Shown: positions 26,501 to 29,500 of the stretch, in pieces
How positions within the stretch are numbered: the first letter of the stretch is position 1
Layout: every line of letters starts with the position of its first letter
From: Bradymonadia bacterium
GTDB lineage: Bacteria > Myxococcota_A > Bradymonadia > UBA7976 > UBA1532
Assembly (NCBI GenBank): GCA_046290225.1
Contig: JBKAGE010000014.1
Location: 1 to 43,550 of the forward strand
DNA length: 43,550 bases
Direction of reading: 5' to 3'
Position numbers: made by a program

Positions 26501-29500
26501 CGCGTGTCATCACGATCACGGCGCGAGCACCCACGGCGCCGGCCTCGCGGTGGGTGTGCCGGATACGATGCCGGAGTTCGGTGTGCAACTCTCTGCTGCG
26601 CTCGAGGCCGCCCGAGCAGGTGGCCATCTGAACTGAGTGCCAGGCCCGGTCTGGGGCGCCCTCAGGTCGTGCGTCAGGCTGCTCTGGCCTACATATGCTC
26701 GTGTGGTGGTGTGCTGATTCGGCACCGCCGAGACCAGCCCCGCTTCCCTTACCCCCCTCTTCTGACTACACTGCGCACCGTTTTGCCTCATCTCAACCTG
26801 CATCGAAGGGATCTCGGACATGTCCGAATTTTCCGACAGCCTCATCAGCCGCCTGAACAACCTCCAGAACCAGTACGGCGTGTACTTCGCCGGTCACGCG
26901 CGCATTACGCGTGACATCGGCATCATGGACAACCTCATCGAGCAGGCCGCCGGGCTGCTCAGCGAGGCCAAGCTCCGCATGGGCGACGCCGACGCGCAGA
27001 GCGCGGCGAAGGCCATCGACGAGGCCCTGAACATGTACCGCAACGAGCGGGAGGCCATCGCCAAGGCTCAGGCCGAGGGGGGCGACGACGCCGTCGAGGC
27101 GCAGATGCTCATGCAGTGGGCCTCTTTCGGCTACCACGTCTACCGCCGCCACTTCGCCGGCCACTCCCGGAGCACCCGCGATCTGGGCCTGCTCGGAGAG
27201 ACGATCGAAGATCTGACCCGCCTTCAGGGTGAGATGGGCGCCCTGGCCGAGGAGATGGAGCAGGCTGATCAGCCCTTCGCCAACGCCCGGGAGACCCTGG
27301 CCCGCAACCTCGAGGTCTACAAGAAGGAGCGCGGCGAGATCGTCGCCGCCCGCGGCGCTGGCTCCCTGGAGCAGCAGTCCGACGTGCTCGCTCAGGTGGC
27401 CAACGAGCAGTTCGGCCTCTACCAGGCCCACTTCGCCGGCAAGCCCCGCATCTCCCGCCGCCCGGGCACTTTGCAGCGCATCATCGACAACCTGACCCAG
27501 ATCAAGGATCGCATGGAGACCCTGAAGCAGCAGGGCCTGCGCTCCGAGGCGAACGATCGCAACATCGGCATCGTGGAGAACCGCCTGGGCTTCTACACCA
27601 AGGAGCTCGAAGAGGTGCGCCAGGTGCGCCAGGACACCCGCTTCGAGGATCTGGTGGGGGCCCTGGGCGCTGGCGCCAACGCGGTCTTCGAGATCTACTC
27701 GAAGAACTTCGCCGGTCAGGATCGAGGCACCCGCGACATCGCCCTGATGCGCACCCTCTGTGACGAGCTGTACGACATCGGCCGCCAGATGGAGGAGATG
27801 AGCCGGGTGAAGGACAACAACCAGAACGGCCACAACCTGATGACGGTGACCGACAACCTGGTGATGTACACCCGCGAGTACGACATGATCCTTGAGGCTC
27901 AGCCGAGCAAGTAAGGGATCTATGGCATTCCGCTGTATTCTGCCGCAGTGAAGCGGCGTCCTCAGCTCACATCTTGTTGGGGCTGGCACCTGAAGGTGCC
28001 CCCGATGGGACTCGAACCCACATCCAGCGATTTAGAGTCGCCCGCTCGGCCATTGAGCTACGGGGGCACAAGGCTGGGGCATTTTGTGCCCCAGCCTTTG
28101 GTGTATCAGCCCTTCCCCAATAATGGCAGCGCCATTCGCCCTGCGTCTGTTGCAAACGCCGTGGCCTGATGTTTGAGGTCAGGCTCTCTCCACACGCACG
28201 TGCGGCCTGTTCTGGGCACATGAGCCATCAGCTCGGCTTCGGAGGGCACGCCGTACACTACGACGATGCCTTGCTGGGGGCCATGCCGGGCGGCCCAGGC
28301 ATCCATGGCGTGAATCGCCTGAGCCATCCGTCGACCCTCTGGCAGATCGGTGCGCACGACAAAGTACAGACGCTCAGGTGCCATCTACGCGACTCGCTTT
28401 GTCCGAGCATCGGCGCGGGCCTGTCTCAGTCCGTCGTGGAGTTGAGGACCTCGCCCTTCGGCGACGGCTGCACGCCAGGCGTCGACCTCTGCCTTGGCGC
28501 GTTCGAGCGTGGATACGCGCTCTATTTCGGCGCCCTCGTAGAACAGCTCTACGAGTGCCACCACCCTCGATGTGCGGAGAAAGCCGAGCTCGTCCCATCG
28601 TGTATGTGGAGATTCTGACAGGGCCGGGTGGCGGCCACGAAGAATGTGGTAGGCGAGCAGATGCGCTCGGGTCTGCCGCCCCAGCTCTCGGGCTTCCGCC
28701 TTGAGCTGATGACGTGCTTGATGACTGGTCTCGCTGGCCTGATGACGCAGGGCGCGACCCTGGGTGGCCAGCTCTTCGATCTTGTGCTTGAGGTTCGACA
28801 GGTACGGCTTCATGAGGATCTCCTGTGTGTTGTGCCGTTTTGCTCGAAAGAGATGCGGAAAACGGCGCAGACAGGAGGCCCTCGGGGTGGGTGTACCTAC
28901 TCGTGTCGGTGTGCGTAGCTCATGGGCTTTACGGTAGCGAGATCGGGATGGGGGGTGTCAACTCTATTTTCGCGGGAGTGGCCGGGCTGTGCGTGTTTTC
29001 CTCGTCAGAATCGTTGTTTGGAGCGTTGGCCGAGAGTCATTTTGGGCAGTGACGGGGGGCAGCGGCTGGGCCTTTGTAGGCAGTCGTCGCTTCGCTCCGC
29101 CTGCGTAGGCGCTGGGCCTTCGGCAGCCCTTCGGGCCGCCTCGTCCGGCGCGTACACGTTCGGGCACCTGCTGACGCAGGCCCAGCCGCTGCCCCCCGTC
29201 ACTGCCCAAAATGACTCTCGGCCAGCACTCTAGAATTCGATCACGATCGACACCCGCGACGAAGCCCCCTCGGGCAATGTGTAACGCGGCGAAGACAGCA
29301 CCCCCACCAGACACTTCCGCTGCGTTTTGCTCAAACTCTCCCCGCCAAGCATCGGCTCCAGAACGTGATCCGACGCCACCCCCGTCGAAGCGTTCACTCG
29401 GGCTGTCCACTTCAGCGCCCCCGGCGCCGAGACCCCTTCGAAACACGCCGCCAGCCTCGGGCTGCGGGCGGCCACCTGCAGGCGGAAGCGCGACAGCCAC

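Follow-up and report, generated by a model that had tools for sequence, protein, structure and literature searches.

A candidate nonsense-suppressor cassette of a Bradymonadia bacterium with a leader that would sense its own suppressor tRNA

In the window analysed here (the whole 43,550-nt stretch of contig JBKAGE010000014.1, assembly GCA_046290225.1), a suppressor tRNA adjoins a two-gene operon, and we consider it likely that together they form a self-contained suppressor-tRNA module which monitors its own suppressor through translation, and in which ribosome arrest at an Arg-Gly-Pro-Pro (RGPP) motif would open a helix. The survey's finding had described a self-sensing nonsense-suppressor cassette, and its sensing part is strongly supported by comparison of related sequences (stop codon and anticodon agree in 20 of 20 loci, RGPP is in frame in 24 of 24 leaders, the helix is predicted in 23 of 23, and phage relatives carry an in-frame TAG). 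The anatomy of the module and the Pth2 fold of one of its proteins are likewise shown by comparison.

Organization of the cassette

The cassette features were confirmed at the following contig coordinates, all on the minus strand.

27995..28067, minus strand: suppressor tRNA, anticodon CUA (ARAGORN; Rfam RF00005)
28070..28098, minus strand: hairpin (12-bp stem, 5-nt loop, no T run) that separates the tRNA from the g00775 stop (sequence inspection)
28106..28384, minus strand: g00775, 92-aa protein of Pth2 fold (mini-Pth2; ORF)
28385..28813, minus strand: g00776, 142-aa helical protein (ORF)
28811..28826, minus strand: 3' strand of the regulatory helix, with the Shine-Dalgarno (SD) sequence AGGAG at 28824-28820 and the g00776 ATG at 28813-28811 (MFE fold)
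28871..28884, minus strand: anti-SD strand, made of the Arg-Gly-Pro-Pro codons CGA GGG CCT CCT (28884-28873) and the next bases to 28871 (sequence, MFE fold)
28810..28896, minus strand: readthrough extension of the uORF, 28 codons, its final TGA (28812-28810) overlapping the g00776 ATG (sequence)
28897..28923, minus strand: uORF MSYAHRHE, 8 codons and TAG (sequence)
28931..28961, minus strand: promoter-like TTGACA (28961-28956), 19-nt spacer and TACCGT (28936-28931), 7 nt from the uORF ATG (sequence)

A scan for consensus terminators reported none at this locus. Among sequencing runs, no RNA run was listed for the region, and two DNA runs contributed small shares. Judging from its sequence, the hairpin at 28070..28098 may be a processing or insulating element, and tRNA-CUA, 38 nt downstream of g00775, may be co-transcribed with the g00776-g00775 operon. 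The stop codon of g00776 is a TAG with the ATG of g00775 directly behind it in the same frame, as in the related loci L005 and L033 (L-numbers label the related loci of the comparison), and the true target of the tRNA here could be this TAG, readthrough of which would give a 235-aa g00776-X-g00775 fusion. However, an in-frame TAG occurs at only these 3 of 27 junctions; the others end in TGA (19, usually overlapping the next start as TGATG, ATGA or GTGA), TAA (3) or an out-of-frame TAG (2). Fusion is therefore rejected as the general function and is very unlikely to be what the tRNA serves here; in this lineage it may occur as an additional effect, not as a conserved function.

Suppressor tRNA and genetic code of the host

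The survey had reported a well-formed tRNA-CUA at 27995-28067 in a genome without pyrrolysine genes, and both statements hold. ARAGORN and Rfam agree on the tRNA (RF00005, 65.1 bits, E 3.3e-13, at 27997-28067), which folds into a canonical class I cloverleaf fitted by the model from end to end, has A as its discriminator and, of the CCA end, encodes just CC. Of the 85 tRNAs in the 8.58-Mb genome no other has the anticodon CUA, and the one closest to it is identical at just 56 of 73 positions. The pyrrolysine check covered PylS_Cterm and PylD, whose best matches, of 23 bits (cut-off 178) and 21 bits (cut-off 150) respectively, were both far below threshold. These values and the 65-bit fit to the general tRNA model speak against an identity as tRNA-Pyl.

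Among 2885 long GC3-rich ORFs of the genome, 80% ended in TGA and 325 (11%) in TAG, and prfA (RF1) was found with 528 bits, along with RF2 and an ArfB-like GGQ protein. A genome in which TAG is reassigned as a sense codon was ruled out, since TAG terminates 11% of the long ORFs and RF1 has been kept.

Agreement between uORF stop and anticodon

In all 20 loci in which both could be seen, the stop codon of the uORF was the one read by the anticodon of the adjacent suppressor tRNA, with zero mismatches; this count includes related loci, and the supported branches of the mini-Pth2 tree require at least one independent anticodon/stop switch. TAG went with CUA in 14 loci (L004, L005, L006, L008, L010, L011, L014, L015, L016, L023, L025, L027, L033 and the locus described here), TAA with UUA in five (L007, L019, L022, L024, L028) and TGA with UCA in one (L040). 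The tree itself is almost unresolved: four changes of the anticodon/stop label appear on the ML tree, of which the well-supported branches force only one. In five further leaders no suppressor tRNA was seen in the fetched DNA; four of these (L009, L013, L026, L030) come with less than 1.3 kb of upstream DNA, and L012 with about 2 kb upstream and 5 kb downstream.

The cassette has a lower GC3 (0.67-0.68) than the neighbouring genes (0.74-0.93), which suggests acquisition. Searches for the family in the 30 other genomes of the order (31 with this one) and in 400 other genomes of the phylum were negative, and a scan of genome contigs gave a single weak, irrelevant match. Both the base composition and these negative searches would suit a stray or decaying mobile-element tRNA that is unrelated to the two small genes and lies beside them by chance. 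Against this stand the agreement of stop and anticodon described above, a linkage kept across bacteria and phages, and the tRNA itself, with its 65 bits and intact cloverleaf; a chance neighbourhood is already contradicted by these sequence comparisons, and we give it hardly any credence.

The leader and its proposed mechanism

The leader anatomy given by the survey (TTGACA at 28961-28956, an 8-codon uORF with TAG, and 28 readthrough codons to a TGA on the g00776 ATG) was recovered in full. A consensus promoter scan that allowed spacers of 16-18 nt reported no promoter at this locus, because the 19-nt spacer exceeds that range; the spacers of the relatives measure 16-17 nt. The layout TTGACN, 16-19 nt, TAnnnT, 6-9 nt and in-frame ATG was present in 17 of 23 leaders. 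With its -10-like box 7 nt from the ATG, the uORF is implied to be leaderless or nearly so, and this probably applies across the related leaders, to judge from their sequences. Counted from the promoter-proximal ATG, the uORFs have 7-12 codons and encode hydrophilic, His/Tyr-rich peptides (e.g., MSYAHRHE), in none of which did we find an N-terminal signal or membrane segment of the kind that lets the localisation machinery relieve the arrest of RAPP/RGPP-type peptides.

The comparison comprised 25 related leaders, 24 of which could be judged (L020 is cut off by the contig start). All 24, and one viral locus, share a common order: promoter, short uORF, stop codon, 2-7 codons, in-frame RGPP, helix, g00776 homologue and a Pth2-fold protein of 90-110 aa. 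In a motif search that demanded R/G/P/P-compatible codons, RGPP followed the uORF stop in frame in every judgeable leader (23 of 23 in the main set, plus L009), at a distance of 2, 3, 4, 5 or 7 codons. Its codons vary at synonymous sites (Arg CGC, CGT, CGA, CGG, AGG or AGA; all four codons of Gly; Pro CCT, CCC, CCA or CCG). The sequence downstream is not conserved, and in L023 a stop codon follows RGPP immediately, which points to the RGPP motif itself. A genome-wide chance scan of both strands for a short uORF and stop with RGPP codons within 12 codons gave 37 matches, 33 with TGA, one with TAA and three with TAG, including this leader.

The survey had also proposed a helix that closes the ribosome-binding site of g00776, with the RGPP codons as the anti-SD strand, and the predictions bear this out. 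In the MFE fold of each of the 23 leaders folded, the RGPP codons are base-paired with the SD and start region, and cognate strands pair best: mean duplex energies were -19.45 kcal/mol for cognate, -15.29 for non-cognate and -10.09 for shuffled strands, and in 10000 permutations the cognate mean was never attained (the duplex at this locus: -19.8 kcal/mol). Part of the conservation of RGPP is thus explained by pairing, since its codons double as the anti-SD strand.

These elements suggest the following course of events. From the promoter, an mRNA would start at or just before the AUG of the 8-codon uORF, which ends in UAG. When a release factor wins at this UAG, the ribosome would leave, and the helix would keep the SD sequence and start codon of g00776 paired. 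When a presumably charged tRNA-CUA decodes it, the ribosome would run on for five codons into Arg-Gly-Pro-Pro and arrest there; sitting on the RGPP codons, that is, on the anti-SD strand, it would hold the helix open, and other ribosomes could initiate on g00776 and the coupled g00775. Such arrest-dependent opening would tie the output of the Pth2-fold protein to suppressor activity, so that mini-Pth2 is probably made only while its suppressor is active.

The helix might instead be melted by the transit of a ribosome that does not arrest, or termination and re-initiation might be coupled at the g00776 start, with RGPP kept merely as the anti-SD strand. The universal pairing with the SD region would accord with this, as would the readthrough frames of some leaders, which in 8 of 23 (this locus among them) end on a TGA that shares bases with the start codon (ATG or GTG) of the g00776 homologue and in four more enter that gene in frame. 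In the remaining 11, however, the frame ends earlier, up to 96 nt short of the conserved part of the gene, and in L023 it stops directly after RGPP. Moreover, an anti-SD strand needs no reading frame, yet RGPP is in frame in 24 of 24 leaders over five gap lengths and draws its Arg from both codon families. Elsewhere, RGPP is the most avoided tetrapeptide according to the consulted sections of PMC12992588. We therefore judge passage without arrest to be quite improbable. That the readthrough frame ends on the g00776 start, as the survey had it, is true here but fails as a general feature; with just 8 of 23 leaders showing it, the stall, and not translational coupling, appears to be the conserved element, and we retain arrest at RGPP as the preferred reading.

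The two encoded proteins

The AlphaFold model of g00775 (pLDDT 96.0, pTM 0.87) adopts the Pth2 fold that the survey had assigned to it: the best 14 Foldseek rows listed against the PDB were the Pth2 entries 2zv3, 1q7s, 3erj, 1wn2, 1xty and 1rlk, together with 2gax, of unknown function (E 2.6e-4 to 7.6e-3, probability 1.0, TM 0.56-0.65, rmsd 3.8-6.4 A). None of its 82 homologues has a precomputed Pfam domain, again as reported, and a Pfam search with g00775 gave no PTH2 (PF01981) row at E up to 1. The survey's description of a protein with no Pfam family is correct in this sense, but g00775 is a member of a phage family (phrog_1866, E 2.4e-7) that already carries the annotation "peptidyl tRNA hydrolase", and by tblastn it is 31-34% identical to the "peptidyl tRNA hydrolase" of cluster C mycobacteriophages. 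In a profile search, the N-terminal [VI]VR.DL...AQ..HA of the family aligned weakly to four PDB Pth2 sequences (E 0.47-0.99); the genome also encodes a separate canonical Pth2 (103 bits), with which an hhalign comparison of the g00775 family was uninformative (probability 9.9). All 17 aligned bacterial and phage mini-Pth2 members share the residues R-x-D, Q..HA, EP and TA. Many homologues, but not g00775, end in an Arg-rich C-terminal tail. Mini-Pth2 is most likely a tRNA-ester hydrolase, for which two duties can be envisaged: it would keep the charged or peptidyl form of the suppressor in check, as negative feedback, or dispose of tRNA or ribosome by-products that readthrough leaves behind.

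For g00776, which had been described as all-helical and without a PDB match, we likewise obtained a helical model (pLDDT 89.7) with no informative fold match. Searches of Pfam, PHROG, the Atlas and known folds found no family; the fold and Atlas searches returned generic helical hairpins only, with Z below 8. In 24 metagenome or viral loci, and in L040, the leader and mini-Pth2 flank a homologue of g00776. A predicted complex of g00776 and g00775, run without controls, scored 0.00. The "EAA" ends of the g00776 family were considered as a degron and set aside, the simpler reading, which we infer, being that GAG GCN GCN serves the next gene as its ribosome-binding site.

Phage relatives and rival inputs to the sensor

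Distant mini-Pth2 homologues were inspected in 16 phage loci. In 11 of these (Alice, Myrna, ME3, Serratia BF, GAP32, RsoM2USA, Arash, LR756501, LR756500, LR756511 and L039) a start codon is followed by 0-2 codons, an in-frame TAG and then mini-Pth2, and in eight of the 11 a tRNA-CUA lies in the fetched flank. The cultured mycobacteriophages Alice and Myrna have the promoter layout TTGACA-17-TAnnnT-6/7 nt, as in the bacterial leaders. Sequence comparison thus supports the view that the phage relatives reach the same suppressor dependence by another design, in which the TAG lies inside the hydrolase gene, at codon 2-4; g00775 has its own ATG with no in-frame stop at these codons, and the gate here would be the uORF-TAG-RGPP leader before g00776. 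ORF coverage with TAG, TGA or TAA read as sense does not discriminate recoding of the phage loci at this GC content, and reading TAG as Q in L033 gave no convincing joined genes.

The input to the leader could also be the supply of release factors. It would then gauge termination by RF1 or RF2 at the uORF stop, as in prfB, with the tRNA as a constant competitor and the hydrolase as a back-up for release or rescue when termination fails. Because tRNA and release factor compete in every readthrough event, the anatomy fits equally well. RF1 reads one of the three stop classes, RF2 another and both factors the third; the genome can supply both, in addition to its ArfB-like GGQ protein. The Arg-rich tails of many mini-Pth2 homologues recall those of ArfA and ArfB, although g00775 has no basic tail. 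Such a sensor would leave unexplained why each cassette carries its own suppressor and why in phages an in-frame TAG, next to a tRNA-CUA, directly controls the hydrolase, and we regard it as unlikely.

If the cassette senses its own suppressor, as we prefer, it might be a portable homeostat of nonsense suppression, in which the suppressor tRNA, the readthrough-to-arrest leader and the Pth2-fold hydrolase, with g00776 as its helper, keep readthrough low and at a fixed level, the hydrolase removing the acyl or peptidyl form of the same tRNA. The device would have been re-tuned to all three stops and moved between bacteria and large phages, where the start-TAG-hydrolase form would do the same job and account for the "orphan" suppressor tRNAs of standard-code jumbo phages. 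We offer this wider picture tentatively, as a possibility that we would sooner doubt than assume.

Comparison with known systems

Leader-peptide attenuation and prfB autoregulation sense the supply of tRNA or release factor through the decoding of leader codons. As in these systems, decoding at one codon of a short leader would set downstream expression here; the difference is that the codon in question is a stop, decoded by a dedicated suppressor, and that the output would come from arrest and SD unmasking rather than from a terminator or a +1 frameshift. Synthetic UAG switches in the tna leader, in which the same logic has been built by hand, act on Rho-dependent transcription, whereas the present cassette is natural and would be translational and arrest-based.

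RGPP is described as the strongest EF-P-resistant ribosome-arrest motif in the consulted sections of PMC12992588, and regulatory arrest peptides of the RAPP/RGPP type, according to the parts consulted of PMC12992588, PMC10987492, PMC10951233 and PMC7897499, include ApdA, ApdP, ApcA, SecM-like peptides and the RAPP/RGPP uORFs of Streptomyces lividans. As in these, R-G-P-P closes a small upstream frame, a helix hides the ribosome-binding site of the gene just behind it, and a stall is expected to free the site. The cassette differs from them in that the motif lies behind a stop codon and can be reached by readthrough only, that the input would be a cis-encoded suppressor tRNA instead of secretion, membrane insertion or metal, and that the uORF has 7-12 codons and lacks a signal or membrane segment. 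The putative stalled nascent chain has only about 15-22 residues, and published RAPP/RGPP arrest peptides are longer. The consulted sections of PMC12992588 make no mention of readthrough, suppressors or stop codons.

Although its model shares the fold of Pth2 (PF01981; PDB 2zv3, 1q7s, 3erj, 1wn2, 1xty), g00775 is shorter (92 aa against about 115), has no PF01981 match and bears its own family signature, EPD[LW]...TA. In cluster C mycobacteriophages, about 96% of the tRNA arrays have a PTH2-like gene according to the consulted parts of PMC5966550, which contain no mention of suppressors, amber or CUA. Like the hydrolases of these and of jumbo phages (phrog_1866), g00775 is a homologous protein adjoining tRNA-CUA, whereas the phage forms are gated by the in-frame TAG at codon 2-4 and have neither the uORF-RGPP leader nor g00776.

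Suppressor tRNAs occur in stop-codon-recoded phages (bioRxiv 10.1101/2021.08.26.457843, as far as consulted), and orphan suppressors are described for the standard-code jumbo phages XacN1 (PMC5852040) and Atu_ph07 (PMC6102473) in the relevant sections of these papers; for XacN1, the authors state there that no target could be named (PMC5852040). The tRNA-CUA studied here resembles these as a mobile, phage-linked suppressor in a genome that otherwise uses that stop. It differs from the suppressors of recoded phages, there being no genome-wide recoding, and from that of XacN1, because a target and a sensor are visible. In the open full-text literature we found no paper in which an RGPP leader or an amber-gated hydrolase is connected with a suppressor tRNA.

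If our reading is correct, we know of no earlier natural gene switch that takes nonsense suppression as its input, with an arrest peptide placed behind a stop that a dedicated tRNA alone can pass. The cassette would give the orphan suppressor tRNAs found in bacteria and jumbo phages with the standard code a visible target and sensor, and would connect the small Pth2-like proteins of phage tRNA arrays with stop-codon decoding. Cultured systems in which this could be tested are mycobacteriophages Alice and Myrna in M. smegmatis and the phages ME3, GAP32 and Arash. Should the stall work as read, the 90-nt leader would be an orthogonal reporter of amber, ochre or opal suppression.

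Organization of the cassette

Every part of the cassette named in the survey's finding, which had proposed that it senses its own suppressor tRNA by readthrough of a uORF stop, was located on the minus strand of the window.

Features of the cassette, in window positions (proteins as open reading frames; tRNA by ARAGORN and Rfam; other features read from the sequence)
28961-28956, minus: promoter-like TTGACA
28936-28931, minus: TACCGT, 19-nt spacer after TTGACA
28923-28897, minus: uORF MSYAHRHE, 8 codons plus TAG, beginning 7 bases past TACCGT
between that TAG and Arg-Gly-Pro-Pro, minus: Val-His-Pro-Pro, in the uORF frame
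28884-28873, minus: Arg-Gly-Pro-Pro (RGPP; CGA GGG CCT CCT), in the uORF frame
28812-28810, minus: end of the readthrough frame, a TGA over the g00776 ATG, 20 codons past RGPP
28813-28385, minus: g00776, 142 aa, stop TAG
28384-28106, minus: g00775, 92 aa, in frame straight after the g00776 TAG
28098-28070, minus: 12-bp hairpin
28067-27995, minus: tRNA with anticodon CUA

Ordinary chromosomal genes surround the cassette (fumarase, penicillin-binding protein, TruD, an RHS/teneurin-type protein and MotA/MotB), and its GC3 (0.67-0.68 vs 0.74-0.93 in neighbouring genes) suggests that it was acquired. Immediately upstream of the cassette promoter is an inverted repeat (29010-29083 and 29168-29241; 74-nt arms, 85% complementary, 84 nt between them), possibly a small insertion element; in relatives the suppressor tRNA occupies the place of this repeat. 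An RHS/teneurin YD-shell protein of 2129 aa (18637-25026) and an AAA_21/AbiEii-like ATPase (2909-4228) have no relation to the cassette.

Suppressor tRNA and genetic code

The tRNA-CUA fits the Rfam tRNA model end to end (65.1 bits) and is the only CUA tRNA among the 85 tRNAs of the genome (8.58 Mb, 64% G+C), where its closest relative, an elongator tRNA-Met, is identical at just 56 of 73 positions. Neither PylS nor PylD was found above cut-off in the genome, RF1 is encoded, and the stops of 2885 long GC3-rich ORFs are TGA (2301), TAG (325) and TAA (259). TAG is an ordinary stop in this genome, and the tRNA-CUA is therefore regarded as a suppressor, with no sign of an altered code. At one related locus (L025:1969-2060) the CUA tRNA is 92 nt long, with a long variable arm and class II shape, whereas the suppressors at other loci are class I, so the inserted amino acid may vary among cassettes.

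The genome also contains four dense tRNA arrays with duplicated isoacceptors (C20:227-1226, 9 genes; C35:228492-229344, 7; C37:77269-79067, 10; C79:72099-73132, 7), one tRNA-SeC and a tmRNA with the tag ANDDVELALAA. A 201-aa open frame (C61:24896-25387) matches the RF1 model in the GGQ part alone (170 bits, positions 164-327) and may encode an ArfB-type rescue factor.

Distribution of related loci

The cassette family was not found in the other 30 of the 31 genomes searched in the order or in 400 further genomes of the phylum; contig scans yielded 29 and 8 loci (metagenome and viral contigs). ORF clustering revealed one shared order, a suppressor tRNA (in most cases upstream and on the strand of the genes), then the g00776 homologue, then the homologue of g00775 (hereafter mini-Pth2), flanked by chromosomal genes (e.g., histidine kinase, thymidylate kinase, HAD protein). 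Most loci with enough flanking DNA carry a suppressor tRNA predicted by ARAGORN (CUA, UUA and, once, UCA). The protein closest to g00776 of the window (49% identity) is encoded in a viral record of 402 kb that has direct terminal repeats and 30 tRNAs, with a tRNA-CUA about 4.5 kb upstream on the same strand.

A probable stop-guarded arrest motif in the leader

All 23 leaders with sequence available have a short uORF ending in TAG or TAA, followed after 2, 3, 4, 5 or 7 codons by an in-frame RGPP; the leader of L020 is truncated by the contig start and was left out of the comparison. The arrangement is equivalent but placed further upstream in L009, and L040, a 31-kb viral contig, has the uORF MIPFY, TGA, four codons and RGPP. 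Wherever a tRNA was seen, the uORF stop is cognate to the suppressor anticodon, with no mismatch.

uORF stop and suppressor anticodon at the same locus
TAG, CUA: 14 loci
TAA, UUA: 5 loci
TGA, UCA: 1 locus (L040)

Given these margins, a perfect match has a probability of about 4e-6 if the loci are independent, which they are not fully. UUA loci were found with both g00776 subtypes, and the small protein's tree is too poorly resolved for counting switches of anticodon and stop. No suppressor tRNA was found in the fetched DNA of five leaders (L009, L012, L013, L026 and L030). A whole-genome scan of both strands for the uORF-stop-RGPP pattern gave 37 occurrences, 33 with TGA and just three with TAG, this leader included.

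The codons of RGPP are spelled freely (six Arg codons from both families, all four Gly codons, and CCT, CCC, CCA or CCG for Pro) and the sequence past RGPP varies, the frame ending on a TGA that overlaps the next start (8 leaders), running in frame into the gene (4) or stopping earlier (11, in one of them directly behind RGPP). A purine 3' of a stop codon favours suppression; 20 of the 23 bacterial leaders have G at this position and all 11 start-TAG gates of phages have a purine there, and G follows 28% of the genome's own TAG stops.

In the minimum-free-energy fold of each of the 23 leaders the RGPP codons are paired with the Shine-Dalgarno (SD) and start region of the g00776 homologue. The RGPP strand pairs with its own SD strand at a mean of -19.45 kcal/mol (-15.29 kcal/mol with SD strands from other loci, -10.09 kcal/mol with shuffled partners), a mean reached in 0 of 10000 permutations, which we take as support, not proof, because relatedness inflates such tests. 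A common promoter layout was recognized in 17 of 23 leaders: TTGACN, 16-17 nt (19 in the window), TAnnnT, 6-9 nt (mostly 7) and an ATG in the uORF frame; from this last spacing we infer that the uORF is leaderless or nearly so. A consensus promoter scan of the window reported no promoter, because of its 19-nt spacer.

A proposed start-TAG gate in phages

A tblastn search with the L040 homologue as query returned 213 phage records, 206 of them from Mycobacterium phages and mostly annotated "peptidyl tRNA hydrolase"; a third query retrieved jumbo phages of Xanthomonas, Klebsiella, Erwinia, Cronobacter, Serratia, Yersinia, Acinetobacter, Ralstonia and Salmonella, several of whose records have no gene annotated under the mini-Pth2 match. 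The unannotated frames include L075:2483-2806 (Serratia phage BF), L078:2983-3339 (RsoM2USA) and those of Erwinia pEa_SNUABM records; annotation is missing probably because no start codon lies past an early TAG. At 11 of the 16 phage loci examined, a start codon, then 0-2 codons and TAG, come ahead of the hydrolase reading frame.

Putative start-TAG gates, as codons ahead of the hydrolase reading frame
Alice: ATG TAG
Myrna: GTG TAG
ME3: ATG ACT TAG
Serratia BF: ATG ACG CAC TAG
GAP32: ATG GCA CAA TAG
RsoM2USA: ATG TTG TAG
Arash: ATG CTG TAG
LR756501: ATG TCG TAG
LR756500: ATG AAG TAG
LR756511: ATG ACT CAC TAG
L039: ATG TTG TAG

An additional in-frame stop raises the possibility that LR756501 is a recoded phage. 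In Alice and Myrna, TTGACA, 17 nt, TACCGT or TACAGT and 6-7 nt lead to the start-TAG, the same promoter layout as in the bacterial leaders. The fetched flank contains a tRNA-CUA at 8 of the 11 gated loci, annotated in Alice as "tRNA-suppressor (cta)" 250 nt downstream; LR745208, ambiguous and not counted among the 11, has a tRNA-UUA 100 nt downstream. Public records give the tRNAs at L071:4463-4534 (Myrna) and L080:4304-4378 (Arash) as tRNA-Ser and tRNA-Phe; the anticodon according to ARAGORN is CTA in each. RaK2, L037 and L038 have ordinary starts and no gate. XacN1 ORF364 (L073:1958-2797) and the RAS14 frame (L079:2512-3297) have no early stop, and in them the mini-Pth2 domain forms the C-terminal portion of a protein of 260-280 aa; according to the XacN1 genome paper, two CUA suppressors lie elsewhere in that genome (PMC5852040).

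The Pth2-fold protein would be produced when the cognate suppressor works, through a stop-guarded arrest leader in the bacterial form and through an early in-frame stop within the hydrolase frame in phages; the suppressor tRNA is presumably charged, and ribosomes reading through the uORF stop would be expected to stall at RGPP. Because two unrelated gates share one dependence on the suppressor, we accept the idea of a self-sensing cassette for its regulatory part.

Several elements of this system had been noted before: a hydrolase gene within mycobacteriophage tRNA arrays (PMC5966550), orphan suppressor tRNAs of jumbo phages whose target was not found (PMC5852040, PMC6102473), engineered switches with UAG in a leader, and RGPP arrest leaders (PMC12992588), the arrest being refractory to EF-P and RGPP the tetrapeptide that many phyla exclude most, according to Fujiwara et al. 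(PMC12992588), in whose text "readthrough", "suppressor" and "stop codon" never occur. A link between a suppressor tRNA and a stop-guarded arrest leader or an amber-gated hydrolase was not found by full-text searches of the literature, subscription journals and supplements aside. The window adds a chromosomal bacterial form of the module, the g00776 partner and the three-way stop/anticodon match.

The two proteins

The g00776 model is helical (pLDDT 89.7), and Pfam, PHROGs, the Atlas and PDB returned nothing informative for it. For g00775 we found 82 homologues, 74-155 aa long, and no precomputed Pfam domain in any of them. Its AlphaFold model (pLDDT 96.0, pTM 0.87; alignment of 40 of the homologues) has as best Foldseek PDB matches only Pth2 enzymes and 2gax, of unknown function (E 2.6e-4 to 7.6e-3, TM 0.56-0.65). 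Since g00775 does not match the Pfam PTH2 model, its profile aligns weakly with PDB sequences and only over the N-terminal VR.DL..G..AQ..HA (E 0.47-0.99), and a separate canonical Pth2 is encoded in the genome, we name it a Pth2-fold protein and not a Pfam PTH2 member. It matches phrog_1866 (E 2.4e-7) and shares 31-34% identity with the "peptidyl tRNA hydrolase" of cluster C mycobacteriophages; the R-x-D, Q..HA, EP and TA residues are invariant in all 17 aligned mini-Pth2 members.

Three putative roles are ranked: mini-Pth2 might hydrolyse the acyl or peptidyl form of the suppressor, a negative feedback holding readthrough at a low level; second, it might clear peptidyl-tRNA or ribosomes left by readthrough; third, it might serve as back-up peptide release upon failed termination. 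The window's g00775 ends in LLGKG without an Arg-rich tail; in 45 of the 82 homologues an Arg-rich tail of varying length runs up to a terminal Ala-Ala, reminiscent of how the ssrA tag ends or of the basic tails found in ribosome-rescue factors, and such tails might bind ribosomes or act as degrons.
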